The notes under the pieces were generated by a model. It did not search any database and was not told where the DNA came from. It saw only the letters and a program-made list of their open reading frames with translations. A program made the position numbers and the translations under genes. A stretch of DNA of 64,000 nt from Escherichia coli (GTDB lineage: Bacteria > Pseudomonadota > Gammaproteobacteria > Enterobacterales > Enterobacteriaceae): the NCBI RefSeq assembly GCF_016903815.1, contig NZ_CP069973.1; one strand, given 5' to 3'. Shown here one piece after another: positions 34,693 through 47,840 of the stretch (its first letter is position 1; each line of letters opens with the position of its first letter).

Positions 34693-35841
34693 TTACCAGG
34701 CGGTATGGTAAAGCTCTACAATATCCTCAAGCGTTGCTTCACGCGGGTTGCCACCGGTACAAACATCATTCAGTGCCGCCTGCGCCAGTGCCGGAATGTC
34801 TTCCTTGCGTACCCCAACATCACGCAAATGTGGCGGAATACCGACATCACGGTTGAGAGCAAACACCGCTTCAACAGCGGCATTACGCGCCTCTTCCAGG
34901 CTCATACCTTCCACTTTCACGCCCATAACGCGCGCGATATCGCGGTACTTCTCACCGGTAAAGTCAGCGTTATAGCGCATGACATGCGGTAGCAGGATGG
35001 CGTTTGCAACACCGTGTGGAGTGTTATAAAACGCGCCCAGTGGATGCGCCATACCATGCACCAACCCTAACCCAACATTCGAGAAGCCCATACCCGCAAC
35101 ATACTGCCCGAGCGCTATTTCTTCTCCGGCATCCTTATCACCAGCAACCGATCCTCGCAGCGCCCCAGCAATGATTTCAATCGCTTTAATGTGCAGTGCA
35201 TCGGTTAGCGCCCACGCGCCACGGGTAATATACCCCTCAATAGCATGAGTGAGCGCATCGACACCCGTCGCAGCTTTCAGCGCTGGAGGCATACCATCCA
35301 TCATGTCAGCGTCAATAAACGCCACCTGCGGGATATCATGCGGATCAACGCAAACAAACTTGCGCCGTTTTTCTTCGTCAGTGATCACGTAGTTAATGGT
35401 CACTTCTGCCGCAGTGCCTGCTGTGGTGGGGATTGCCAGAATCGGTACACTGGGTTTATTGGTCGGGGAAAGCCCTTCCAGGCTACGCACATCGGCAAAC
35501 TCCGGGTTGTTGCTGATAATGCCAATCGCTTTACAAGTATCCTGTGGAGAACCACCACCAATAGCGATCAGGTAATCCGCGCCGCTATTCTGGAATACAC
35601 CGAGCCCTTCTTTGACGACAGTAATTGTTGGGTTGGGCACTACGCCGTCGTAAATCGCCCATGCCAGCCCTGCAGCATCCATCTTATCGGTCACTTTCGC
35701 CACCACGCCGCATTGCACCAGCGTTTTATCGGTGACGATCAGCGCCTTCTGATAACCACGGCGTTTCACCTCATCGGTTAAAGCCCCAACAGCACCCCGA
35801 CCAAACCATGCCGTTTCGTTCAGAATCATTCTGTTAGCCAT
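34693..35841 (-). CDS. fucO: L-1,2-propanediol oxidoreductase (lactaldehyde reductase)
   Basis: ORF 34693..35844 (MMANRMILNE...); iron-containing alcohol dehydrogenase; start at first or second Met. Confidence 0.93.
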   Translation of the reverse strand: MANRMILNETAWFGRGAVGALTDEVKRRGYQKALIVTDKTLVQCGVVAKVTDKMDAAGLAWAIYDGVVPNPTITVVKEGLGVFQNSGADYLIAIGGGSPQDTCKAIGIISNNPEFADVRSLEGLSPTNKPSVPILAIPTTAGTAAEVTINYVITDEEKRRKFVCVDPHDIPQVAFIDADMMDGMPPALKAATGVDALTHAIEGYITRGAWALTDALHIKAIEIIAGALRGSVAGDKDAGEEIALGQYVAGMGFSNVGLGLVHGMAHPLGAFYNTPHGVANAILLPHVMRYNADFTGEKYRDIARVMGVKVEGMSLEEARNAAVEAVFALNRDVGIPPHLRDVGVRKEDIPALAQAALNDVCTGGNPREATLEDIVELYHTAW

Positions 35842-35868
35842 CATCCTTCTCCTTGTTGCTTTACGAAA

Positions 35869-36516
35869 TTACTCTTCAATTCGTAACCCATAGGTTTTGA
35901 ATTTCTCCAGCACTACGGCAATCTCTTCATCGCTCAGCACTGGCACCGGGTCCGTAATCGCCAGGGTCGTCAGGTAAAGTTGCGCCAGCACTTCAACTTC
36001 ATGCGCCAGCCATAACGCTTTTTCCAGATTCACCTCACAAGCGATAAGCCCATGATGTTGTAACAAAGTTGCCTTACGATTTTTGAGAGCCAGCGCAACA
36101 TGTTCAGAAAGTTCACGTGTTCCAAAGGTCGCATAAGGCGCGCAAGGAATAGAATTACCGCCCGCCGCCGCAATCATGTAGTGAATAGCGGGGATCGGTC
36201 GGTTAAGAATGGAAACTGCCGTGCAATGAACGGCATGATTGTGAACAACCGCGTTGGCATCCGGTCTGCTTTGATAGGCTGCCATATGGAAACGCCACTC
36301 GCTGGAAGGAATCTTACCTTCTTCGTATTTGCCGTTGCCATCAACATAGACAATCATATTCTCCGTCATTCTTTCATAAGGAATACCGCTGGGAGTAATC
36401 AACATGCCGTTTTCAAAACGTGTGCTGACATTCCCCGCTGTCCCCTGATTTAACCCAAGGCGCGTCATTTCCAGACAGGTTTCAATTATTTCACGGGATA
36501 AACGTGTTCTTTCCAT
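35869..36516 (-). CDS. fucA: L-fuculose-1-phosphate aldolase
   Basis: 215-aa ORF MERTRLSREIIETCLEMTRLGLNQGTAGNVS... Confidence 0.95.
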   Translation of the reverse strand: MERTRLSREIIETCLEMTRLGLNQGTAGNVSTRFENGMLITPSGIPYERMTENMIVYVDGNGKYEEGKIPSSEWRFHMAAYQSRPDANAVVHNHAVHCTAVSILNRPIPAIHYMIAAAGGNSIPCAPYATFGTRELSEHVALALKNRKATLLQHHGLIACEVNLEKALWLAHEVEVLAQLYLTTLAITDPVPVLSDEEIAVVLEKFKTYGLRIEE

Positions 36517-36648
36517 TTCTATTCTCCAGATACAGTTTCAGCTCGCCTTGTTGCGTAAAACAGCACCGCAAATGAAGACGGGGTTATTTTTAGTAAGGGG
36601 AGGCCACTGAATATCATTGTTCAGTAGCCTGATATCTTTTGGCGATTA

Positions 36649-37647
36649 TTATTTTTTTCTTATGCGCTTAATTAATTTCATTCCTACTTTAACTGTTTTT
36701 TTGACTGGTCTTTCTTCGATCGCGCTTAACATCATTTCGAACGCTTTTTCTGCCCAGGCATTTTCATCCTGCTGCATTGACCAGACATTGTTGGCGAGAA
36801 ATCCCAGCATAGGATGTTCATCGAAAGTGCCAATATTGATTTCTGGCGGTACAGCGCCAAGACGGTCGCGAATCGCGCGGACAGCGCCTTCAAGCACAGG
36901 CAAAGACGAGGCGATAAATGCCTGCGGACATCCCTGCTCTTCAATGAGTTTTTCCATAATGACATAGCCGCCTTCCGGAGTATTTACCGGACCTTCCCGC
37001 ACCCAATCGCGATGGGTAATCCCTTTTTTTGCCAACGCATTCAAATAACCTGTCAGACGATCGCTGATACTCGGCAAACCGGCATCTCCCAGCAAAAACC
37101 ATACTGGAGCCTGCCCGGCCTCAAGAATATTTTGCGTCAGCTTTTCTCCGCCAGAAATATTATTACTCTCTACCAATGCGTTATCGGTATATTTAAAATC
37201 ACGATCGAGTAAAACCATGGGCTTACGAATTTTGCGTAAATGATGCTGCTGATTTTCCAGCGTCGAAGGAACAATAAAAAGACCATCTACATTTCGTGCG
37301 ATAAATGCTTTCGTCAATTTATTTTCATAGTCAACATCATCATAAGTGCAACTGATTGTAAGTTGATATCCGGAACGTCGACAGCGTTGTTCGAGTTTTT
37401 CTGCCAGCGTAGCAAAAAAGACGTTGGATATGTTGGGAACAATCAACCCTAATGTATCAGTTTTGTTAAGCTTAAGGCTGCGAGCGGAATGATTAATGAT
37501 ATAACCATAGCGTTCAACATATTCATTGATACGCGTTTGGGTTTTGACGCTGATTCGATATTGTTCCGCTTTTCCATTTAGCACCAGTCGCACGGTCGTA
37601 ACCGATAAATTCAGGTCGCTGGCTATCTGCTCTACTGTTTTAGCCAT
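36649..37647 (-). CDS. LacI/GalR-family transcriptional regulator
   Basis: 332-aa ORF with N-terminal HTH (MAKTVEQIASDLNLSVTTVRLVLNG...) and periplasmic-binding-like effector domain. Confidence 0.85.
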   Translation of the reverse strand: MAKTVEQIASDLNLSVTTVRLVLNGKAEQYRISVKTQTRINEYVERYGYIINHSARSLKLNKTDTLGLIVPNISNVFFATLAEKLEQRCRRSGYQLTISCTYDDVDYENKLTKAFIARNVDGLFIVPSTLENQQHHLRKIRKPMVLLDRDFKYTDNALVESNNISGGEKLTQNILEAGQAPVWFLLGDAGLPSISDRLTGYLNALAKKGITHRDWVREGPVNTPEGGYVIMEKLIEEQGCPQAFIASSLPVLEGAVRAIRDRLGAVPPEINIGTFDEHPMLGFLANNVWSMQQDENAWAEKAFEMMLSAIEERPVKKTVKVGMKLIKRIRKK

Positions 37648-37711
37648 AGGTATTTCCCAGTTAACATCCAGACGTCAAATCACAATCATAAAAGTATTTT
37701 CAACTTTTGTC

Positions 37712-39292
37712 TTATTGCATCAGTTGGTTAACCGCCTGTTGTTGCTCCCAAAGCGTCAGGTAAACCCGGTATTTACGCTCTAAAAATTCACGGCGTTGTG
37801 GATTTACCTGAATAATCTCTCCGGCTTCAACCATTGCTTTACACGCAGATGTAAAATCCCCCCATGCTCCGCTGGCAACAGCGCCGCTAATTGCTGCGCC
37901 CAACGTAACGGCATCTTCTTCTTGCATCAGGTGGATATCGCAACCTGTCACGTCTGCATATTCGCGTAGCCATAAAGGGTTGTGCGTTGCACCACCACAT
38001 AATGTTAATCGGGTAATGGTATGCCCATTTTCCCGCAGAGTTTCAATAATATGTCTGGTGCCAAAGGCTATTGCCTGTAAAGTCGCAAGATAAAGTCGCG
38101 CGAGCTGATTTTCACCACGCTCCAGTGTTAAGCCATAAACACTGCCTCTGGCATCGGGCCGCGCTCGTGGCGAACGGTTGCCGTGATGATCGGCAAGCAC
38201 ATGTAAATTTCGTGTGGGTTCTGACTCGTTAGCTTCAAGGGCTGCTACCCATTCATTAATCAGTTGAATCGGATGACATCCGCGTTGCTGCGCCTTGTGA
38301 AAAAGATTTGCGCTTGCCCCTGACTCCTGAAGCGTCCACTCCACCAGCGCCCCTGCGGCGCTTTGCCCGCCTTCGGTTAGCCAGTAATTTGGCAACATGG
38401 CCGACCAGTATGGCCCCCAGACGCCAGGGGTGAATATCTCTTTTTCACTACACAGCATATGGCAGTTCGACGTTCCGCTTATCAATGCCAGCGTTCCTAA
38501 TGGGTGAGCGCCAGCCAGCGCCACGCCACCGGCATGGGCATCAATCAAGCCACTGGCCACGATAACATTAGTCGTTAATCCTAACTCTTCAGCAGCTGTG
38601 GCGGTTAACGTTCCCACGGCAGCGCCAGGCGGAAGAATGTCGGCAGGAATTCTTTCAAGCATATCGGTCAGGTCTATCGATTCCAGTAAGCTATGGCTAA
38701 AGCGTTGCTCATGAGCTAGATAATTCCATTTACACGTTAGCGTGCATAATCCCGCGACGTCTCGCCCTGTTGCTTTCCAGACCAGAAAATCCGCCAGATC
38801 GAAAAAGCGATGAGCGGCCTGCCAGGTTTGCGGTAGATGCGTCTTCAACCAACGTAACTTTGGTAACTCCATCTCGACGCTCACTTCGCCGCCAACGTAG
38901 CGCAATGCGGGATCCTTCATTGCGTTAATCTGCGCCGTCTCGACAGTTGCACGATGATCCATCCACATAATAATGTCGTGATTCGCAGATCCACCGGACG
39001 AAACCGCTAAACCCTGGCCTTGTTCATCAAGAACAACCAGCGAGCAGGTAGCGTCAAAACCCAGTGAGCGAATTGCGGAAATGGGGATGCCTGCCAAAGC
39101 TGTCGCCTCTTTCACCGTTTTACAAACTTGTTGCCAGATCTCTGCCGAAGACTGTTCGACACGCTCGCCGCCAGGGCGAAACTGGGAGACGGGCGCAGTA
39201 GCGAATGCCAGCCTGTGGCCACTGGCACTGTAAACGCCTGCCCTGACACTGGCCGATCCGACATCGACACCGAGAAAATAACCGTTGTGCAT
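37712..39292 (-). CDS. FGGY-family pentulose-type kinase (candidate D-ribulokinase)
   Basis: ORF 37712..39412; start set at MHNGYFLGVDVGSASVRAGVY with AGGGAGG RBS (527 aa); DHHGNRSP motif typical of the ribulokinase/pentulose-kinase branch. Confidence 0.8.
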   Translation of the reverse strand: MHNGYFLGVDVGSASVRAGVYSASGHRLAFATAPVSQFRPGGERVEQSSAEIWQQVCKTVKEATALAGIPISAIRSLGFDATCSLVVLDEQGQGLAVSSGGSANHDIIMWMDHRATVETAQINAMKDPALRYVGGEVSVEMELPKLRWLKTHLPQTWQAAHRFFDLADFLVWKATGRDVAGLCTLTCKWNYLAHEQRFSHSLLESIDLTDMLERIPADILPPGAAVGTLTATAAEELGLTTNVIVASGLIDAHAGGVALAGAHPLGTLALISGTSNCHMLCSEKEIFTPGVWGPYWSAMLPNYWLTEGGQSAAGALVEWTLQESGASANLFHKAQQRGCHPIQLINEWVAALEANESEPTRNLHVLADHHGNRSPRARPDARGSVYGLTLERGENQLARLYLATLQAIAFGTRHIIETLRENGHTITRLTLCGGATHNPLWLREYADVTGCDIHLMQEEDAVTLGAAISGAVASGAWGDFTSACKAMVEAGEIIQVNPQRREFLERKYRVYLTLWEQQQAVNQLMQ

Positions 39293-39344
39293 AAAGCCTC
39301 CCTGACGCTGGAGATAACGGGGATGAAAATTCATCCCCAATTTT

Positions 39345-40295
39345 TTATTTCTTACCGAATGGGTGCAGGAGTTTGTCGATTTCTGGCGTGTTAATATTCT
39401 CGGCATTAACAAATTTCACGGGAATATCGATCTCTTTTTCAACGGCTTGCCCCGAAAGGGCCGCGTTCAACGTTTTGATCCCTTGATAGCCAATCTGGTA
39501 TGCATCCTGAACAACAAAGCCCTGAATGACGCCGTTCTTCAGGAAGTTAATAATCGCTTCCGTACTATCAAAACCAATGACCTTCACCTTACCTTTCAGA
39601 TTCTGGCTATCAATGGCATTCGCCACCCCGAGCGTTGAACCTTCATTGGTGCCATAGATCCCAGCAAGATCGGGATTGGCCTGAATCATATCGATAGTTT
39701 TATCCATCGCTTTTTGCGGGTCACCATCGCTGTACTGAACGGGTAAGACTTTAATGTCAGGATATTTTTCTTTCATACGCTCCATGAAGCCTTCCGAGCG
39801 TTCAATAGCGGAAGATGTTCCTGCAACGTGCGCGATAATCCCAACTTTCCCTTTATTATTTACCTGCGAGGCTAAGGCATCAGCTGCCTGAGCACCTGCT
39901 TTACGGTTATTGGTGGCGACAAAACTCACCGGAATGTCTGAATTGATGCCTGAATCAAAGGTCACCACTTTGATACCGCGTGAATTTGCCGTTTCTACCA
40001 GTGGGGCGAGCGCATTCGCGTCGAGGGCTGCCAGAAGCAAGCCATTCGGTTTCTGCGCCATCGCATTTTCGACTAACTGAATTTGCTCGGCTATTTGCGT
40101 TTCATCAGCCGGGCCAACATAGCTGGTTTTATCCCCCAACTCTTTAGCCGCAGCTTCAGTCCCCATTTTTACGGTTTGCCAGAATTCATGTTGGAAACCT
40201 TTACTAACAACCGGAAGATTTAAATCCTTCGCCAGTGCGCTGGAACTTACGCAAGCCAGCAGAGATAACGCATAGATAAAATGCCTGGTTTTCAT
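39345..40295 (-). CDS. periplasmic sugar-binding protein (RbsB-like) of the ABC transporter
   Basis: ORF 39345..40418; start set at MKTRHFIYALSLLACVSSSALA (signal peptide) giving 316 aa. Confidence 0.8.
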   Translation of the reverse strand: MKTRHFIYALSLLACVSSSALAKDLNLPVVSKGFQHEFWQTVKMGTEAAAKELGDKTSYVGPADETQIAEQIQLVENAMAQKPNGLLLAALDANALAPLVETANSRGIKVVTFDSGINSDIPVSFVATNNRKAGAQAADALASQVNNKGKVGIIAHVAGTSSAIERSEGFMERMKEKYPDIKVLPVQYSDGDPQKAMDKTIDMIQANPDLAGIYGTNEGSTLGVANAIDSQNLKGKVKVIGFDSTEAIINFLKNGVIQGFVVQDAYQIGYQGIKTLNAALSGQAVEKEIDIPVKFVNAENINTPEIDKLLHPFGKK

Positions 40296-40368
40296 TGTTG
40301 TACTCCGTTCTGAGTGAATCACCCTTAACGTCAGGGCAGTTGTTTCCCGATAAAACAGGGAGCCTAAG

Positions 40369-41352
40369 TCAACGAATCTTTTTGCGTAATGTATCGAGGT
40401 AAACGGCAGCGACCACAACGACGCCCATCGCGACCATTTGCCAGAACTGGGAGACGCCCATTAAATTGAGGCCATTTTTCAGTACACTCATAATGAAAGC
40501 GCCAATGATTGTGCCGCCAATAGTGCCAATACCGCCCATTAAGCTGGTTCCGCCAATCACTACCGCGGCAATAGCTTCCAGTTCATAACCCACACCTACC
40601 GTCGGTTGTCCGGAGTTGAGACGAGATGCCAGAATGACACCTGCAATCCCCGTTAATAATCCACAGAAGGCATAGACGAAAATTTTCACGCGCTGAACTT
40701 TAATACCAGAAAGATGAGCAGCAACTTCATTACTGCCTACGGCATAGACATAGCGACCAATGACGGTTTTCTTCAGGATGTAAGCGCCGACAAGCGCTAC
40801 AATGACAAGGTAGAAAACAGGATAAGGCAGCACATCAAATAAGCGTCCCTGAGCGAGCGTTTTGAACATCGGGTAATCGGCAAAATAGATGGCGCGCCCG
40901 TCGGTCATCACCATATTGATACCTCTGACGGACATCATCAGGCCCAAGGTAGCGATAAATGGTGGAATGGTCATTTTAGTGACCAACAAACCATTCACAT
41001 AGCCGCACATTCCACCGGCTAAAACACCGGCAATAATACACACTGGCAGCGGCAGGCCCAGTGTGGCGCAAATCCCCACGGCGACACCAGAAAAAGCCAC
41101 CACGGAGCCCAATGAAAGATCGATGCCCGCGGTAATAATGACGAAAGTTACCCCAATGGCCATAATGCCGATAACCGACGTTTGCAGAGCAATCGTCATG
41201 ATATTTTCGGTATTAAAGAAAAAGGGAGAGCTGAAACTAAAAAACAGCACTAATATAATTAAGCTAAAAAGAGGCGCAAGGCGCATCAAAAGTTCTTTAT
41301 TTATCTTTATTTTCTTATTATTACTGTCTGGAGAGGTTACAGAGATAGTCAT
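40369..41352 (-). CDS. sugar ABC transporter permease (RbsC-like)
   Basis: 327-aa hydrophobic ORF with multiple TM segments. Confidence 0.8.
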   Translation of the reverse strand: MTISVTSPDSNNKKIKINKELLMRLAPLFSLIILVLFFSFSSPFFFNTENIMTIALQTSVIGIMAIGVTFVIITAGIDLSLGSVVAFSGVAVGICATLGLPLPVCIIAGVLAGGMCGYVNGLLVTKMTIPPFIATLGLMMSVRGINMVMTDGRAIYFADYPMFKTLAQGRLFDVLPYPVFYLVIVALVGAYILKKTVIGRYVYAVGSNEVAAHLSGIKVQRVKIFVYAFCGLLTGIAGVILASRLNSGQPTVGVGYELEAIAAVVIGGTSLMGGIGTIGGTIIGAFIMSVLKNGLNLMGVSQFWQMVAMGVVVVAAVYLDTLRKKIR

Positions 41353-41355
41353 AAT

Positions 41356-42870
41356 TTAATCCTCTAACGTCGCGTATTGCATAATTTTTTCTTGTGTCGC
41401 TTCTTTTGCGCTAAGTTCGCCGGTAATTCGACCACTGCGCATCACTAAAATACGGTCGCACATTCCTAACACCTCAGGCAATTCAGAGGAGATCATGATG
41501 ATTGATTTCCCTTTTGCCACCAGGCGATTCATTAACTCATAGATTTCCAGTTTGGCGCCAACATCAATGCCGCGAGTGGGTTCATCGAAGATTAAAATAT
41601 CAGTATCTTTACACACCCAACGTGCAATTATAATTTTCTGCTGGTTTCCTCCACTTAGATTTAATGCCGCCTGTTCAAGATTTGGCGTTTTAATCCTTAA
41701 CGCTTTTACCTGTTCCTCACTGGTTTGTTGGCAACGACGCGAATCGACATTCCCAAAACGATCGGAATATTCAGGGTAGTTTCCTAACATAATATTTCGT
41801 TCAACAGATAAATTCAGCGCCAGCCCTTCTTTTTTGCGGTCTTCCGTCAGGTAACTAATTCCCTGCTGAATAGCATCCGAAATATCTTTAATAACGGTTT
41901 CCTTACCATTTAATTTTAGCGTTCCGCTGTCAATAGAATCCGCACCAAAAATCGCACGCGCAAGTTCAGTACGCCCCGCGCCCATCAGTCCGGCAAAGCC
42001 GAGGATCTCGCCACGATAAAGCGTAAAATTAATATCGTTCAGGACGCCTTTGCGCGTCAGTCCGTTTACCTCCAGAACCGGAATCCGCTGCTGCAAGGCC
42101 TCGCGGCGGGGATAGATATTCCCTAAATCGCGACCAACCATCATGGCAATCAGATCGCTGATTTTTACGCACTCATAATCCACCGTGCTGATGTACTGAC
42201 CATCACGCATTACAGTCGCACGGTCGGCAATTAGCGCCAACTCTTCCAGACGGTGGGAGATATAAACAATGCCGGTCCCCTGCTCTTTCAATAACCGGGT
42301 GACGCGAAATAAGCTTTCAATTTCAGTTTCTGTTAACGCCGCAGTAGGTTCATCCATAATGAGAATCCTGGCGTTAACTGAAATGGCCTTGGCAATTTCT
42401 ACCATCTGCTGCTGAGCTACCGTAAGGTCGGCAACCAGAGTATCTGGTTTGATCGCCAAATTTAATTTTTGCAAAATTTCAATCGTCGCCTGGCGTTGCT
42501 GTTTTTCATCCAGACGCCAGCGATTTTTTTTACAAAACTCCCTGCCGATAAAAATATTTTCTTCTACTGTAAGCTCGGGAAATAAATTAAATTCCTGGTG
42601 AATAATAGTAATACCTACGTTTTGCGCACTTAACGGATCAGAAAATGAGACTGGTTTATCTTCAAAAATTATTTCGCCTTCATCAGGTTGATAAACCCCC
42701 GACAAAATTTTCATTAAGGTAGATTTTCCTGCACCATTTTCACCTAATAATGCATGAACCTCGCCCCGGCGTAGGGAAAATTGCACGTCATTAAGCGCCA
42801 ACACTCCAGGAAAGCGTTTGGTGATATGCTTCATTTGCAAAAATGTTTCGGACATTGCAGCTTTCCTCAA
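41356..42870 (-). CDS. sugar ABC transporter ATP-binding protein with two NBDs (RbsA/CUT2-like)
   Basis: 504-aa ORF with Walker A GENGAGKST, second P-loop GLMGAGRTE and signature LSGGNQQK. Confidence 0.85.
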   Translation of the reverse strand: MRKAAMSETFLQMKHITKRFPGVLALNDVQFSLRRGEVHALLGENGAGKSTLMKILSGVYQPDEGEIIFEDKPVSFSDPLSAQNVGITIIHQEFNLFPELTVEENIFIGREFCKKNRWRLDEKQQRQATIEILQKLNLAIKPDTLVADLTVAQQQMVEIAKAISVNARILIMDEPTAALTETEIESLFRVTRLLKEQGTGIVYISHRLEELALIADRATVMRDGQYISTVDYECVKISDLIAMMVGRDLGNIYPRREALQQRIPVLEVNGLTRKGVLNDINFTLYRGEILGFAGLMGAGRTELARAIFGADSIDSGTLKLNGKETVIKDISDAIQQGISYLTEDRKKEGLALNLSVERNIMLGNYPEYSDRFGNVDSRRCQQTSEEQVKALRIKTPNLEQAALNLSGGNQQKIIIARWVCKDTDILIFDEPTRGIDVGAKLEIYELMNRLVAKGKSIIMISSELPEVLGMCDRILVMRSGRITGELSAKEATQEKIMQYATLED

Positions 42871-42987
42871 TAATCAGAAACTGAAAATGTGAAGTACGGC
42901 ATAAACGTCGCTACTAAAGCCATCTCCACTGTGATACGAATAACCTTTGAATAAATATTCATCGCATCAATCTATTCTTCGCATTTT

Positions 42988-43003
42988 GCTAACTCGAGTT
43001 AGC
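42988..43003. promoter_or_regulatory. 16-bp perfect palindrome GCTAACTCGAGTTAGC (candidate operator), upstream of the ABC operon
   Basis: Read directly; 118 bp upstream of the ATPase start codon on the minus strand; identical to the site at 43227. Confidence 0.5.
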
Positions 43004-43226
43004 GATCGCCTTTTAAAGCTATTTTAGGTATACAAATTAGCCAAATCATTTGAGTTAAAACTGTGATGCATAACCATTAAAATCTAATAACCATATGATT
43101 ATACGTAAAATTTATTTTTCTCCCGCTAAATAATAATTTGACAGAGATCGTATTTTAACCACTTCTCGTGAAGCCCCTCACATTTCAACAACAAAAAAGT
43201 TGTGCATAAAAAGCCTACAAACCTAA

Positions 43227-43242
43227 GCTAACTCGAGTTAGC
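43227..43242. promoter_or_regulatory. 16-bp perfect palindrome GCTAACTCGAGTTAGC (candidate operator), upstream of fucI
   Basis: Read directly; 83 bp upstream of the fucI ATG; identical to the site at 42988, 239 bp away. Confidence 0.5.
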
Positions 43243-43324
43243 AAATAATGACCAATACTACTGCTTCGGTGGTTTCCTTTCTCCGCCTTAGCAGAGCGCC
43301 AATAAAGCGAGATGAGGAATCCTG

Positions 43325-45100
43325 ATGAAAATTAATACGTTACCGAAAATTGGTATCCGCCCGGTTATTGACGGTCGTCGCATGGGTGTTCGTGAGTCGC
43401 TTGAAGAACAAACAATGAATATGGCGAAAGCCACGGCCACACTGCTGACCGAGAAACTGCGCCATGCCTGCGGAGCTGCCGTCGAGTGTGTCATTTCCGA
43501 TACCTGTATCGCGGGTATGGCTGAAGCCGCTGCTTGCGAAGAAAAATTCAGCAGCCAGAATGTAGGCCTCACCATTACGGTAACGCCTTGCTGGTGCTAT
43601 GGCAGTGAAACCATCGACATGGATCCAACCCGCCCGAAAGCCATTTGGGGCTTTAACGGCACTGAACGTCCCGGCGCTGTTTACCTGGCAGCGGCTCTGG
43701 CAGCTCACAGCCAGAAAGGCATCCCGGCATTCTCCATTTACGGTCATGACGTTCAGGATGCCGATGACACATCGATTCCAGCCGATGTTGAAGAAAAACT
43801 GCTGCGCTTTGCCCGCGCCGGTTTGGCAGTCGCCAGCATGAAAGGTAAAAGCTATCTGTCGCTGGGCGGCGTTTCGATGGGTATCGCTGGTTCCATCGTT
43901 GATCACAACTTCTTTGAATCCTGGCTGGGAATGAAAGTCCAGGCGGTGGATATGACCGAACTGCGTCGCCGTATCGATCAGAAGATTTACGACGAAGCCG
44001 AACTGGAAATGGCGCTGGCCTGGGCTGATAAAAACTTCCGCTACGGCGAAGATGAAAATAACAAACAGTATCAACGCAATGCCGAGCAAAGCCGCGCAGT
44101 TCTGCGCGAAAGTTTACTGATGGTGATGTGTATCCGCGACATGATGCAAGGCAACAGCAAACTGGCCGATATTGGTCGCGTGGAAGAATCACTTGGCTAC
44201 AACGCCATCGCTGCGGGCTTCCAGGGACAACGCCACTGGACCGATCAATATCCCAATGGTGACACTGCCGAAGCGATCCTCAACAGTTCATTTGACTGGA
44301 ATGGCGTGCGCGAACCCTTTGTCGTGGCGACCGAAAACGACAGTCTTAACGGCGTGGCAATGCTAATGGGTCACCAGCTCACCGGCACCGCTCAGGTATT
44401 TGCCGATGTGCGTACCTACTGGTCACCAGAAGCAATTGAGCGTGTAACGGGGCATAAACTCGATGGACTGGCAGAACACGGCATCATCCATTTGATCAAC
44501 TCAGGTTCTGCTGCGCTGGACGGTTCCTGTAAACAACGCGACAGCGAAGGTAACCCGACGATGAAGCCACACTGGGAAATCTCTCAGCAAGAGGCTGACG
44601 CTTGCCTCGCCGCTACCGAATGGTGCCCGGCGATCCACGAATACTTCCGTGGCGGCGGTTACTCTTCCCGCTTCCTTACCGAAGGCGGCGTCCCGTTCAC
44701 CATGACTCGTGTCAACATCATCAAAGGCCTGGGACCGGTACTGCAAATCGCGGAAGGCTGGAGCGTGGAATTGCCGAAGGATGTGCATGACATCCTCAAC
44801 AAACGCACCAACTCAACCTGGCCAACCACCTGGTTTGCACCGCGCCTCACCGGTAAAGGGCCGTTTACGGATGTGTACTCGGTAATGGCGAACTGGGGCG
44901 CTAACCATGGGGTTCTGACCATCGGCCACGTTGGCGCAGACTTTATCACTCTCGCCTCCATGCTGCGTATCCCGGTATGTATGCACAACGTTGAAGAGAC
45001 CAAAGTGTATCGTCCTTCTGCCTGGGCTGCGCACGGCATGGATATTGAAGGCCAGGATTACCGCGCTTGCCAGAACTACGGTCCGTTGTACAAGCGTTAA
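43325..45100 (+). CDS. fucI: L-fucose isomerase
   Basis: 591-aa [41 protein letters not shown]...; GAGGAA RBS. Confidence 0.95.
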
Positions 45101-45178: not shown

Positions 45179-46627
45179 ATGTTATCCGGCTATATTGCAG
45201 GAGCGATTATGAAACAAGAAGTTATCCTGGTACTCGACTGTGGCGCGACCAATGTCAGGGCCATCGCGGTTAATCGGCAGGGCAAAATTGTTGCCCGCGC
45301 CTCAACGCCTAATGCCAGCGATATCGCGATGGAAAACAACACCTGGCACCAGTGGTCTTTAGACGCCATTTTGCAACGCTTTGCTGATTGCTGTCGGCAA
45401 ATCAATAGTGAACTGACTGAATGCCACATCCGCGGTATCGCCGTCACCACCTTTGGTGTGGATGGCGCTCTGGTAGATAAGCAAGGCAATCTGCTCTATC
45501 CGATCATTAGCTGGAAATGTCCGCGAACAGCAGCGGTTATGGACAATATTGAACAGTTGATCTCCGCACAGCGGTTGCAGGCTATTTCTGGCGTCGGAGC
45601 CTTTAGTTTCAATACGTTATATAAGTTGGTGTGGTTGAAAGAAAATCATCCACAACTGCTGGAACGCGCGCACGCCTGGCTCTTCATTTCGTCGCTGATT
45701 AACCACCGTTTAACCGGCGAATTCACTACTGATATCACGATGGCCGGAACCAGCCAGATGCTGGATATCCAGCAACGCGATTTCAGTCCGCAAATTTTAC
45801 AAGCCACCGGTATTCCACACCGACTCTTCCCTCGTCTGGTGGAAGCGGGTGAACAGATTGGTACGCTACAGAACAGCGCCGCAGCAATGCTCGGCTTACC
45901 CGTTGGCATACCGGTGATTTCCGCAGGTCACGATACCCAGTTCGCCCTTTTTGGCGCAGGTGCCGAACAAAATGAACCCGTGCTCTCCTCCGGTACATGG
46001 GAAATTTTAATGGTTCGCAGCGCCCAGGTTGATACTTCGCTGTTAAGTCAGTACGCCGGTTCCACCTGCGAACTGGATAGCCAGGCAGGGTTGTATAACC
46101 CAGGTATGCAATGGCTGGCATCCGGCGTGCTGGAATGGGTGAGAAAACTGTTCTGGACGGCTGAAACACCCTGGCAAATGTTGATTGAAGAGGCTCGTCT
46201 GATCGCGCCTGGCGCGGATGGCGTGAAAATGCAGTGTGATTTATTGTCGTGTCAGAACGCTGGCTGGCAAGGAGTGACGCTTAATACTACGCGGGGGCAT
46301 TTCTATCGCGCGGCGCTGGAAGGGTTAACTGCGCAATTACAGCGCAATCTACAGATGCTGGAAAAAATCGGGCACTTTAAAGCCTCTGAATTATTGTTAG
46401 TCGGCGGAGGAAGTCGCAACACATTGTGGAATCAGATTAAAGCCAATATGCTTGATATTCCGGTAAAAGTTCTCGACGATGCCGAAACGACCGTCGCAGG
46501 AGCTGCGCTGTTCGGTTGGTATGGCGTAGGGGAATTTAACAGCCCGGAAGAAGCCCGTGCACAGATTCATTATCAGTACCGTTATTTCTACCCGCAAACT
46601 GAACCTGAATTTATAGAGGAAGTGTGA
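45179..46627 (+). CDS. fucK: L-fuculokinase
   Basis: 482-aa FGGY kinase ORF; synteny. Confidence 0.93.
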
Positions 46628-46628
46628 A

Positions 46629-47051
46629 ATGCTGAAAACAATTTCGCCGTTAATTTCTCCCGAACTATTGAAAGTGCTGGCAGAGATGGGACATGGAGAT
46701 GAAATTATTTTTTCCGATGCTCACTTTCCCGCCCATTCGATGGGACCGCAGGTGATCCGCGCTGATGGCCTGTTGGTGAGCGACTTGCTCCAGGCGATTA
46801 TCCCGTTATTTGAACTGGACAGTTACGCACCGCCGCTGGTGATGATGGCAGCGGTAGAAGGTGACACTCTCGATCCTGAAGTAGAACGACGTTACCGTAA
46901 TGCGCTTTCACTACAAGCCCCGTGTCCTGACATCATCCGCATCAATCGTTTTGCGTTTTATGAACGGGCGCAAAAAGCCTTTGCGATCGTTATCACAGGC
47001 GAACGAGCGAAGTACGGGAATATTCTTTTAAAAAAAGGGGTAACACCGTAA
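46629..47051 (+). CDS. fucU: L-fucose mutarotase
   Basis: 140-aa ORF; synteny. Confidence 0.93.
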
Positions 47052-47108: not shown

Positions 47109-47840
47109 ATGAAAGCGGCACGCCAGCAAGCGATAGTCGACCTGCTGCTGAACCATACCAGCCTGACCACGGAAGCTCTCTCTGAACAGCTAAAGGTCAG
47201 TAAAGAAACCATTCGTCGCGATCTCAATGAATTACAGACGCAGGGTAAAATTCTGCGCAATCATGGACGCGCTAAATATATCCACCGTCAAAATCAAGAC
47301 AGTGGCGATCCCTTTCACATCAGGCTGAAAAGCCATTATGCGCATAAAGCAGATATCGCGCGCGAGGCGCTCGCGTGGATTGAAGAAGGGATGGTGATAG
47401 CCTTAGACGCCAGTTCAACTTGCTGGTATCTGGCACGCCAGTTGCCTGACATCAACATTCAGGTCTTCACCAATAGCCATCCGATTTGCCATGAACTCGG
47501 TAAACGCGAACGCATTCAACTGATCAGTTCCGGCGGCACACTTGAGCGCAAATATGGCTGTTACGTCAATCCCTCGCTGATTTCCCAACTTAAATCGCTG
47601 GAAATCGATCTGTTTATTTTTTCTTGTGAAGGGATCGATAGCAGCGGCGCACTGTGGGACTCCAATGCCATCAACGCTGATTACAAATCGATGCTATTAA
47701 AACGTGCCGCGCAATCGTTGTTATTGATTGATAAAAGTAAATTTAATCGTTCAGGGGAAGCCCGCATCGGGCATCTGGATGAGGTAACGCACATTATTTC
47801 TGATGAGCGCCAGGTTGCAACTTCTTTGGTAATAGCCTGA
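47109..47840 (+). CDS. fucR: DeoR-family L-fucose operon activator
   Basis: ORF 47100..47840; start set at MKAARQQAIVDLLLNHTSL giving 243 aa. Confidence 0.9.
   Translation: MKAARQQAIVDLLLNHTSLTTEALSEQLKVSKETIRRDLNELQTQGKILRNHGRAKYIHRQNQDSGDPFHIRLKSHYAHKADIAREALAWIEEGMVIALDASSTCWYLARQLPDINIQVFTNSHPICHELGKRERIQLISSGGTLERKYGCYVNPSLISQLKSLEIDLFIFSCEGIDSSGALWDSNAINADYKSMLLKRAAQSLLLIDKSKFNRSGEARIGHLDEVTHIISDERQVATSLVIA

Follow-up and report, generated by a model that had tools for sequence, protein, structure and literature searches.

Gene content of the fuc locus

The DNA analysed here is a stretch of 64,000 nucleotides (the window) carrying the fuc locus of an E. coli strain. The interval between fucA and fucI encoded a LacI-type regulator, a kinase, a substrate-binding protein, a permease, and an ATPase, and fucP was missing from it. 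ORFs, NCBIfam and Pfam matches, and RefSeq annotation bore out the first-pass annotation, which had described this island as holding a regulator and a full ABC importer and lacking fucP. On the minus strand, fucO (lactaldehyde reductase, 34693..35844) was 99.1% identical to K-12, and the adjacent fucA (35869..36516, 215 aa) was a mosaic of a K-12-like 3' part of 430 nt and a donor-like 5' part of 218 nt. The same strand carried the gene of a 332-aa LacI-family regulator (36649..37647; NCBIfam/Pfam matches and PGAP name), a proposed repressor of divergent promoters, followed by the kinase gene (37712..39292) and the genes of a CUT2-type ABC importer. The latter encoded a periplasmic sugar-binding protein of 316 aa (39345..40295; Peripla_BP_4, E 5e-70), a permease of 327 aa (40369..41352; BPD_transp_2, RbsC/AraH-like, below the equivalog cut-offs), and an ATPase of 499 aa with its start as called by PGAP (41356..42855; two ABC_tran domains, RbsA/XylG-like, below the cut-offs). 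A divergent control region (42856..43324), in place of the K-12 fucA-fucP promoter region, separated the ABC-darK operon from fucI on the plus strand. Downstream of this region were fucI (L-fucose/D-arabinose isomerase, 43325..45100; ORF list, RefSeq annotation, and comparison with K-12), fucK (L-fuculokinase of a separate FGGY branch, 45209..46627; 20% identical to DarK), fucU (fucose mutarotase, 46629..47051; RefSeq annotation), and fucR (DeoR-type activator, 47109..47840), which was kept although its K-12 target promoter region had been replaced.

The kinase gene was an intact minus-strand ORF of 1581 nt encoding 526 aa, with an ATG at 39292, GGAGG just 5' of this ATG, and its end at 37712. 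A mechanical ORF list had started the kinase at a TTG at 39412; this start was rejected, the ATG at 39292 with its GGAGG being preferred. The coordinates matched those of RefSeq CDS WP_029701938.1 exactly, in a 100%-identical genome. RefSeq labels the kinase only as an 'FGGY-family carbohydrate kinase', and the partner genes are also named generically. Based on the ORF, the ATG and ribosome-binding site, the TIGR01315 and Pfam matches, and the identity to BL21(DE3) given below, we annotated the gene as darK, an FGGY-family pentulose kinase (D-ribulokinase).

The kinase belongs to the FGGY pentulose kinase subfamily

The kinase matched Pfam FGGY_N with 93.2 bits (cut-off 28.8, E 2.5e-26), FGGY_C with 166.1 bits (cut-off 27, E 1.1e-48), and NCBIfam TIGR01315 (FGGY pentulose kinase) with 531.3 bits against a cut-off of 408.7 (E 2.8e-159, residues 6-520 of 526). 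These E-values indicated that the family match was not due to chance. In an alignment with AraB, XylB, LsrK, GlpK, and FucK, residues D10, G12, D251, G273, T274, G433, and G434 were invariant. With both Pfam domains above their gathering scores and the conserved FGGY residues all present, the earlier assignment to the FGGY family held. The same alignment gave identities of 18-26% to AraB, XylB, LsrK, and GlpK of K-12 and to FucK of the window. The kinase scored below the equivalog cut-offs for AraB (NF003154, 276.9 < 428; TIGR01234, 216.3 < 583.25), XylB (158.7 < 380.25), GlpK (99.5 < 590.35), LsrK (92.6 < 528), FucK (55.7 < 470.9), and GntK (85.2 < 648.55). Glycerol kinase and LsrK, the other specificities that the first-pass annotation had named, therefore failed at their own cut-offs, whereas the TIGR01315 cut-off was passed. 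The motif LADHHGNRSPRARPDARG was found in the translation, and the form DH[HY]GNRSP was present in all of the 120 closest homologues (120/120). The corresponding position read DWFNGRRTP in AraB and PYLSGERTP in XylB, and nothing aligned there in FucK, in agreement with the view of DHHGNRSP as a mark of the pentulose-kinase branch that sets the protein apart from FucK.

Family membership by itself leaves the specificity of the kinase unfixed. The enzyme might prefer another ketose (L-ribulose, xylulose, or a ketohexose formed by FucI from L-galactose or D-altrose), with D-ribulose as a side substrate. Such a preference would fit TIGR01315 being a 'subfamily' model and not an equivalog, and would fit the paralogues of about 60% identity that lie in unrelated clusters together with a 550-aa protein resembling FucI, a lyase of the DHDPS type, and a BNR protein, an arrangement pointing to a family with more than one specificity. 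We nonetheless regard it as very improbable, since the AraB, XylB, LsrK, and GlpK models were clearly failed, the ability of B strains to use D-arabinose is assigned to this locus in the literature, and a common operator (see below) ties the module to a GH172 gene, GH172 being a family that includes exo-alpha-D-arabinofuranosidases.

The kinase is DarK of the E. coli B-type locus

The first-pass annotation had raised a possible D-ribulokinase serving D-arabinose catabolism, mentioned a darK segment beside fucA in E. coli B, and suggested a comparison with the fuc region of B genomes. This comparison showed that BL21(DE3) and REL606 carry the same island, with the same kinase among the same neighbours. 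The window kinase was identical at 525 of 526 aa to the gene at the same position in both strains (99.9% at the nucleotide level), the sole amino acid change being L265 in the window and S in the B strains. As with DarK of E. coli B (ECD_02649 / WP_000551482.1 in BL21(DE3)), the gene occupied the slot between the LacI-type regulator and binding-protein genes, with the same flanks. The whole stretch from xni to rlmM was 100% identical to BL21 in nucleotide sequence, save for darK (99.9%, one or two bases) and the IS1 in fucA of B: fucA was intact in the window, whereas in BL21(DE3) and REL606 it is split by IS1. The locus had also been supposed to differ from that of E. coli B in its ABC importer, its regulator, and its lack of fucP; this supposition fell, as the sequenced B genomes show all three. 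The mismatch is with a 1994 description of E. coli B, reportedly at the level of a restriction map.

The only kinase gene in the fuc-locus segment absent from K-12 was darK (BL21(DE3), REL606), and because of this map position the purified D-ribulokinase is equated with this ORF. In published work, the B-strain gene between fucA and fucI (ECD_02649) has been assigned the reaction RBK_D1, and the kinase gene is already called DarK or RBK_D1. D-arabinose supports growth of REL606 and BL21(DE3) but not of K-12, and DarK is stated in the literature to be needed for this growth. Judged by sequence identity, the window kinase and DarK, the D-ribulokinase encoded in the B-type fuc locus of E. coli, are one and the same. 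The kinase was therefore already known; the first-pass finding was correct, and there is nothing new in the kinase itself.

Mosaic origin, distribution, and relatives

On either side of position ~36298, the identity of fucA to K-12 was 99.3% versus 75.6%, and the right junction of the replacement lay at the first codons of fucI. The locus is a mosaic: crossing over within fucA and at the beginning of fucI imported the central part of a fuc cluster resembling that of Gibbsiella. No fucR was present in the donor-like clusters L005, L006, and L018. The B-type allele was found in approximately 381 of 5426 complete E. coli genomes (~7%), where it was mutually exclusive with fucP.

A minimal module in Nissabacter consisted of fucI, a darK orthologue (67% identity), and the regulator gene; fucK, fucA, and ABC genes were all missing. 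The fuc cluster of Endozoicomonas contained a DarK orthologue of 50% identity with HHGNRSP. The darK-type kinase gene always adjoined fucI, even where the ABC genes were absent, as in Nissabacter.

More distant relatives were also noted. Paralogues about 60% identical to the kinase sit in quite different clusters. A search for distant DNA revealed a second TIGR01315-like gene in 72 E. coli genomes, located in an unrelated cluster of the DHDPS/BNR/MFS type. A Klebsiella homologue (P0047, 62% identity) was considered as RbtK and rejected, being in a plasmid DHDPS/BNR/MFS cluster and not in a ribitol operon.

The ABC importer

The closest solved structures to the binding protein (AF2 model, pLDDT 92) were 4rxt and 4wut, and D-fucose is the confirmed ligand in 4wut. 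Vibrio, Endozoicomonas, and Clostridiales have homologues of the binding protein within their fuc clusters. The idea of an ABC importer specific for D-arabinose was dropped, since in Vibrio and Clostridiales importers of this type occur with fuc genes where DarK is absent.

The regulator and the divergent control region

No homology to K-12 was found in the control region (42856..43324), which shared conserved blocks with cluster L005 and Gibbsiella. It contained two exact 16-bp copies of the palindrome GCTAACTCGAGTTAGC, 239 bp apart, at 42988..43003 (O1) and 43227..43242 (O2), the second lying 83-98 bp upstream of the fucI ATG. The palindrome was unchanged in L005, Gibbsiella, and Nissabacter and had 1-2 mismatches in Scandinavium, and both copies were kept perfect in clusters whose genes were only 72-90% identical at the nucleotide level. 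Both are probable operators. In Nissabacter, a copy was also present in front of the GH172 gene; this third copy and the pair in the control region are possibly new. Between the two palindromes, a pattern match identified a CRP-like site, TGTGAGGGGCTTCACG (43167..43182, minus strand), within a block conserved in L005 and Gibbsiella, to which CRP may bind. Scans of 36400-43450 for sigma-70 promoters and terminators returned counts at the level of shuffled sequence, with no signal above chance.

The best NCBIfam match of the island regulator was fruct_sucro_rep (TIGR02417), at 234.4 against a cut-off of 389.55, and placement in the Cra/FruR-ScrR subfamily was rejected as this cut-off was not reached. 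Pfam identified periplasmic-binding-protein domains and a weak LacI HTH, and PGAP labels the protein a LacI family regulator; by these matches it belongs to the LacI family and forms a subgroup of its own. It shared 71% identity with the regulator of Nissabacter, which adjoins the same palindromes. Both the ABC-darK-regulator(-fucAO) operon and the divergent fucIKU genes are most likely controlled by the LacI-type repressor of the island. Its binding sites would be the two 16-bp palindromes, identical to each other, within the replaced promoter region, where CRP would act as well. This pairing of repressor and operators, like the effector of the LacI-type protein, is proposed. A further reading, tentative and in our judgment slightly less than evenly probable, is that this protein ('DarR') binds GCTAACTCGAGTTAGC and controls ABC-darK-fucAO and fucIKU, that FucR is left without its K-12 targets, and that the ancestral regulon served a D-arabinofuranoside pathway. 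Classically, D-arabinose is the natural inducer of the fucose enzymes in B and not in K-12. If the DarR reading is true, it would explain this puzzle from the 1980s, the ancestral source of D-arabinofuranoside could be, for example, actinobacterial arabinan, and the D-arabinose catabolism of gut E. coli would be linked to D-arabinofuranoside-containing glycans. The regulatory wiring around darK appears to be undescribed so far.

The proposed D-arabinose pathway

Taken with the route and regulation proposed here, we consider it highly probable that the gene is darK, encoding the D-ribulokinase of the L-fucose/D-arabinose locus found in B-type E. coli. D-arabinose would probably enter through the adjacent CUT2-type ABC importer, which would also stand in for the missing FucP. 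FucI would convert D-arabinose to D-ribulose, and DarK, as an ATP-dependent FGGY kinase, would phosphorylate D-ribulose on O5, so that D-ribulose-5-phosphate could enter the pentose phosphate pathway with FucK and FucA dispensable. For the window protein, we infer the C5 product from the family and from the growth on D-arabinose of B strains carrying fucA::IS1; the product of the D-ribulokinase RbtK is D-ribulose-5-phosphate.

The first-pass annotation had implied that the kinase makes D-ribulose-1-phosphate, which FucA then cleaves. The position of fucA directly downstream of the island and in the same orientation would suit this route, and FucA is said, from work ascribed to LeBlanc and Mortlock, to cleave D-ribulose-1-phosphate in D-arabinose-positive mutants of K-12, which counts in its favour. 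It is nevertheless extremely improbable. The kinase of that route is FucK, which the locus already encodes; the product listed for the D-ribulokinase branch is the 5-phosphate; the Nissabacter module has no aldolase; and both REL606 and BL21(DE3) use D-arabinose despite the IS1 in fucA, so FucA is not needed. The D-ribulokinase and its supply by FucI thus survived from the earlier pathway logic, but the step through D-ribulose-1-phosphate and FucA, which belongs to the FucK route, did not.

These results place a B-type fuc/dar allele in a non-B strain, and predict that this strain uses D-arabinose and transports fucose by means other than FucP. In the ~7% of E. coli strains that carry it, DarK would open a way for D-arabinose, a rare sugar, to reach the pentose phosphate pathway. 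The practical gain is one of annotation, the RefSeq names of darK and its partners being generic. Caution is due with published fucose phenotypes of BL21 and REL606 that were blamed on the missing fucP, as both strains are also fucA::IS1.

Comparison with known systems

The Rbl system of Citrobacter rodentium resembles the present locus in having a TIGR01315-type FGGY D-ribulokinase (RblK) beside a CUT2 ABC importer. This architecture, together with the published requirement of RblK for growth on D-ribulose and the identical kinase reaction, would fit a kinase for direct scavenging, in which the importer takes up free D-ribulose, the kinase traps it, and neither FucI nor D-arabinose is involved. 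We consider this unlikely. Among the PDB matches of the binding protein, AauA (9i1m) ranked 47 with 69.5 bits, compared to 189 bits for 4rxt, whereas components of Rbl and Aau share ~60% identity. The locus encoded no Rbl/Aau-type binding protein, no KpsF-like isomerase, and no isomerase other than FucI. The kinase is here coupled to FucI, and its gene always lies beside fucI, with or without ABC genes. Kinases of fuc loci also fall in a clade and context apart from the Rbl-like ones (Cottam et al.); DarK and BL21 are unmentioned in the supplementary files of that study. Scavenging of D-ribulose could be a role added to D-arabinose catabolism by DarK, and not an exclusive one.

'Variant 2' of the fuc operon (Saif et al. 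2023), in which an ABC transporter replaces fucP and BL21 is the representative, is the same locus type. The frequencies reported there, 50 of 1058 genomes and 7.5% among isolates, are in line with the 381 of 5426 found here. That study dealt with fucose transport only, and made no link to DarK and D-arabinose, to the LacI-type regulator, or to fucA::IS1 of BL21.

The L-ribulokinase AraB represents the nearest classical FGGY branch (26% identity), and both kinases share the position of an xGxRxP motif. AraB differs in carrying DWFNGRRTP instead of DHHGNRSP, and the kinase failed both AraB equivalog models; AraB can act promiscuously on D-ribulose as a kinase. RbtK of the Klebsiella ribitol operon (EC 2.7.1.47) is expected to share with DarK the conversion of D-ribulose to D-ribulose-5-phosphate, and belongs to the same family, having been retrieved with TIGR01315 by Cottam et al. 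The two differ in their supply, as RbtK receives D-ribulose from ribitol dehydrogenase, whereas DarK would receive it from FucI.

The kinase gene and its locus

The kinase gene occupies 37712-39292 on the minus strand. A mechanical ORF list gave an ORF at 37712..39412 (-) starting from TTG, but by sequence the start was an ATG at 39292 with GGAGG just before it, and the RefSeq CDS (WP_029701938.1) spans exactly 37712-39292 in the strain 7/2 genome, where the region is 100% identical to the window. The TTG starts of the ORF caller at 39412, 40418, and 42870 overextended the kinase, binding-protein, and ATPase ORFs, for which PGAP placed ATGs at 39292, 40295, and 42855; a 249-aa ORF at 43340-44089 (-), antisense to fucI, was rejected as spurious. 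The 526-aa product contains LADHHGNRSPRARPDARG and, in a Pfam search, both FGGY domains. The genes fucO and fucA and those for the LacI-type regulator, kinase, periplasmic binding protein, permease, and double-ABC ATPase are on the minus strand, divergent from fucI, fucK, fucU, and fucR on the plus strand. No fucP was found at the fuc locus of the window in the ORF list, NCBIfam, Pfam, or RefSeq annotation. The position of the kinase and the layout of the island (importer, kinase, and regulator between fucA and fucI), as described in the first-pass annotation, were thus confirmed.

Between darK and the binding-protein gene is a gap of 52 nt containing a strong 8-bp GC-rich stem-loop (39319-39338, GGGGATGAAAATTCATCCCC). 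The coding (-) strand lacks a T-run there, and the stem-loop may affect mRNA stability or act as a partial attenuator, tuning the binding-protein:kinase expression ratio. The regulator gene and fucA are 132 bp apart, and the intervening DNA has an 11-bp inverted repeat with an 8-nt spacer (36601-36630, AGGCCACTGAA / TTCAGTAGCCT), which could be terminator-like or a binding site.

The kinase within the FGGY family and its identity with DarK of E. coli B

In an NCBIfam search, the kinase passed TIGR01315, the FGGY-family pentulose kinase model, with 531 bits against a cut-off of 408.7. It failed all other kinase models (score/cut-off: AraB 277/428 and 216/583, XylB 159/380, GlpK 99/590, LsrK 93/528, GntK 85/649, and FucK 56/471), including those for glycerol kinase and LsrK, which had been named as alternative placements. 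Its identity by alignment was 26% to K-12 AraB, 20% to XylB, 18% to LsrK, 21% to GlpK, and 20% to the FucK of the window, and the full set of invariant FGGY residues in this alignment was retained. At the motif position AraB carries DWFNGRRTP, XylB PYLSGERTP, GlpK PAFTGLGAP, and FucK a gap, whereas DH[HY]GNRSP was present in 120 of the 120 best database homologues (57-100% identity). The argument that DHHGNRSP marks the pentulose-kinase branch, unlike FucK, therefore held. Among solved structures, the closest was 3gg4/3l0q (461 bits), which comes from structural genomics and is uncharacterised, ahead of AraB (3qdk, 173 bits).

Paralogues of DarK within TIGR01315, at about 60% identity, were seen in Dickeya (locus L020, 8001-15945), one Klebsiella plasmid (L007, 6001-13596), and 72 E. 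coli genomes (C10: L009, 5618-12579). Their conserved cluster comprises a FucI-like protein of about 550 aa (weak Fucose_iso_C match), a DHDPS-like lyase, a BNR_2 protein, an MFS transporter, and a LacI regulator, with an enolase-superfamily protein and an SDR in place of the BNR_2 protein in E. coli C10, and looks like an uncharacterised ketose pathway. Since these paralogues sit in that other type of cluster, the specificity of the kinase is not readable from family membership alone.

The locus had been thought to differ from that of E. coli B in its ABC importer, its regulator, and the lack of fucP. This was not so. The fuc regions of BL21(DE3) (NC_012971 2765631-2779523) and REL606 (NC_012967) have the same order as the window, fucA-regulator-kinase-binding protein-permease-ATPase-fucI, without fucP, so all three are features of E. 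coli B. The kinase of the window differs from that of BL21(DE3) and REL606 at 1 residue in 526, and gene by gene from xni to rlmM the window was 100% identical to BL21, with darK alone at 99.9%. Identity at 525 of 526 residues in the same place next to fucA supported the proposal that the kinase is the D-ribulokinase DarK.

The probable D-arabinose route

L-fucose isomerase is well known to convert D-arabinose to D-ribulose as a side reaction. The most likely route is FucI to DarK to D-ribulose-5-phosphate: FucI would turn D-arabinose into D-ribulose, and DarK would phosphorylate D-ribulose to D-ribulose-5-phosphate, a pentose-phosphate intermediate, bypassing FucA. The D-ribulokinase branch is recorded with D-ribulose-5-phosphate as product. 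A route via D-ribulose-1-phosphate through FucK and FucA had been implied instead, and three observations argued against it and favoured the 5-phosphate. IS1 interrupts fucA in each of the two sequenced B strains, which still use D-arabinose (Yoon et al. 2012; Kim et al. 2018). The minimal module of Nissabacter sp. consists of fucI and, transcribed divergently, an orthologue of darK (67% identity) and the regulator (71% identity); fucK, fucA, and the ABC genes were not found in this module, so fucose cannot be its substrate. In the fuc cluster of Endozoicomonas, a DarK orthologue (50% identity, HHGNRSP) adjoins FucK and FucA, indicating that DarK and FucK coexist as distinct functions. Of the earlier proposal, the kinase as putative D-ribulokinase of a D-arabinose route was kept, and the FucA/D-ribulose-1-phosphate branch was dropped.

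The ABC importer

The nearest solved relatives of the binding protein were 4rxt (189 bits, about 36-42% identity) and 4wut (179 bits), and a confident AF2 model (pLDDT 92) gave the same top structural matches. D-fucose is present in 4wut, and 4rxt presumably contains D-arabinose. Homologues at 53-69% identity lie within fuc clusters elsewhere: in a Vibrio, where the cluster lacks DarK and has a DeoR regulator; in Endozoicomonas; and in a Clostridiales bacterium, where the homologue adjoins diol dehydratase genes. Because of this embedding, the importer is best read as a fucose-cluster ABC importer, with L-fucose and its structural analogue D-arabinose as likely substrates. An importer of D-arabinose only, or of D-ribulose, was disfavoured by these homologues, the Vibrio one lacking DarK, and by the distance (69 bits) of the island protein from AauA, the EHEC D-ribulose/L-arabinose binder. 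The fucose-importer reading fits the finding of Saif et al. 2023 that every clinical isolate without fucP carried the ABC permease and was able to ferment fucose.

Distribution and origin of the island

Of 5426 complete E. coli genomes, 381 carried the island (at least 80% of the 7 kb at 36400-43400) and 5039 carried K-12 fucP; since the counts sum to 5420/5426, a single locus exists in two alternative allelic forms. Two island sequence types were found, at at least 99% (about 195 genomes) and 97.6-98% identity (about 188). The former is shared by laboratory B strains and by isolates from humans, pigs, birds, and poultry, a range that suggests recombinational spread within E. coli. Compared to K-12, fucA (35869-36516) is 99.3% identical over its 3' 430 nt and 75.6% over its 5' 218 nt, with a junction near 36298. 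Identity is gone upstream of fucA and is back within the first codons of fucI, of which codons 3-5 (43331-43339) differ. This profile indicated that homologous recombination had replaced the segment, through crossovers located within fucA and within fucI; an insertion was ruled out by the chimeric fucA and the altered fucI codons.

Candidate donors matching the replaced segment exist. In Gibbsiella quercinecans (kinase 80% identical), the cluster lies in an unrelated chromosomal context and lacks fucR and fucP; fucU-fucK-fucI there is divergent from ATPase-permease-SBP-kinase-LacI-fucA-fucO. This layout recurs in a Scandinavium genome. An Escherichia-like genome carries the whole Gibbsiella-type cluster, likewise lacking fucR, at its fuc site; identity to the window is 92-93% in the flanks and 84-90% in the island genes.

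The control region

The K-12 fucA-fucP intergenic region, including the FucR-dependent promoters, is gone from the window and replaced by a new 469-bp divergent region between the ATPase gene and fucI. Within this region, the 16-bp palindrome GCTAACTCGAGTTAGC occurs twice, as exact copies (42988-43003 and 43227-43242), and between them lies a CRP-like site TGTGAGGGGCTTCACG (43167-43182, -) in a block conserved in the Escherichia-like genome and Gibbsiella. In these two loci both palindromes are perfect and keep the same 239-bp spacing, the other intergenic DNA being 71-88% identical; those of Scandinavium have 1-2 mismatches. In the Nissabacter locus (L019), the DNA separating fucI from darK holds two perfect copies (7706 and 7923), and a third exact copy (13482) precedes a GH172 gene by 94 bp; an MFS_2 transporter gene comes after the GH172 gene. 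The GH172 family includes exo-alpha-D-arabinofuranosidases. The palindrome resembles the Cra box. Since it has the form of a LacI-family operator, and the LacI-family regulator is the sole regulator common to the window, Escherichia-like, Gibbsiella, Scandinavium, and Nissabacter loci, GCTAACTCGAGTTAGC is probably the operator of the LacI-type regulator of the island. If so, the ancestral regulon would lead from D-arabinofuranosides through D-arabinose and D-ribulose to Ru5P. Elsinghorst and Mortlock (1988) reportedly found that D-arabinose induces the fucose enzymes in B and not in K-12, for which such control would account. Promoter scans of the locus were uninformative.

The fucR gene (47109-47840) is kept at 99.7% identity to K-12 despite replacement of the promoter region on which FucR acts, and was not found in the donor-like clusters of Gibbsiella, Scandinavium, and the Escherichia-like genome. 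This allele may leave FucR partly orphaned.

Comparison with the published E. coli B system

The gene or locus has been covered in four studies, so the finding is already known, and the kinase is already known as DarK. Yoon et al. 2012 listed the D-arabinose utilisation genes as B-specific, with REL606 D-arabinose positive and K-12 negative, and added the reaction RBK_D1 to their model. Kim et al. 2018 assigned RBK_D1 to ECD_02649, located "between fucA and fucI", and reported that D-arabinose supports growth of BL21(DE3). The same locus is fuc "Variant 2" of Saif et al. 2023, with the ABC transporter replacing fucP (50/1058 genomes, 7.5% of isolates), and Cottam et al. 2025 found that the TIGR01315 proteins they retrieved from Escherichia fall into three clades. 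The operator and regulon observations may be the only new part.

The window has 7456 bp between the fucA stop and the fucI start and K-12 has 2543 bp, which makes the net gain 4913 bp. A 1994 cloning paper reportedly placed an extra segment of about 5.2 kb with darK between fucA and fucP. The net gain is compatible with this restriction-map estimate, and such a map could not have revealed replacement of fucP itself. In E. coli B, fucA is split by IS1 (BL21(DE3), L003 13631-15055; REL606, L014 11970-13394), whereas in the window fucA is intact and IS1 is absent. The missing fucP as the sole published cause of poor fucose growth in B strains (Yoon et al. 2012; Saif et al. 2023) may be confounded by this fucA::IS1.
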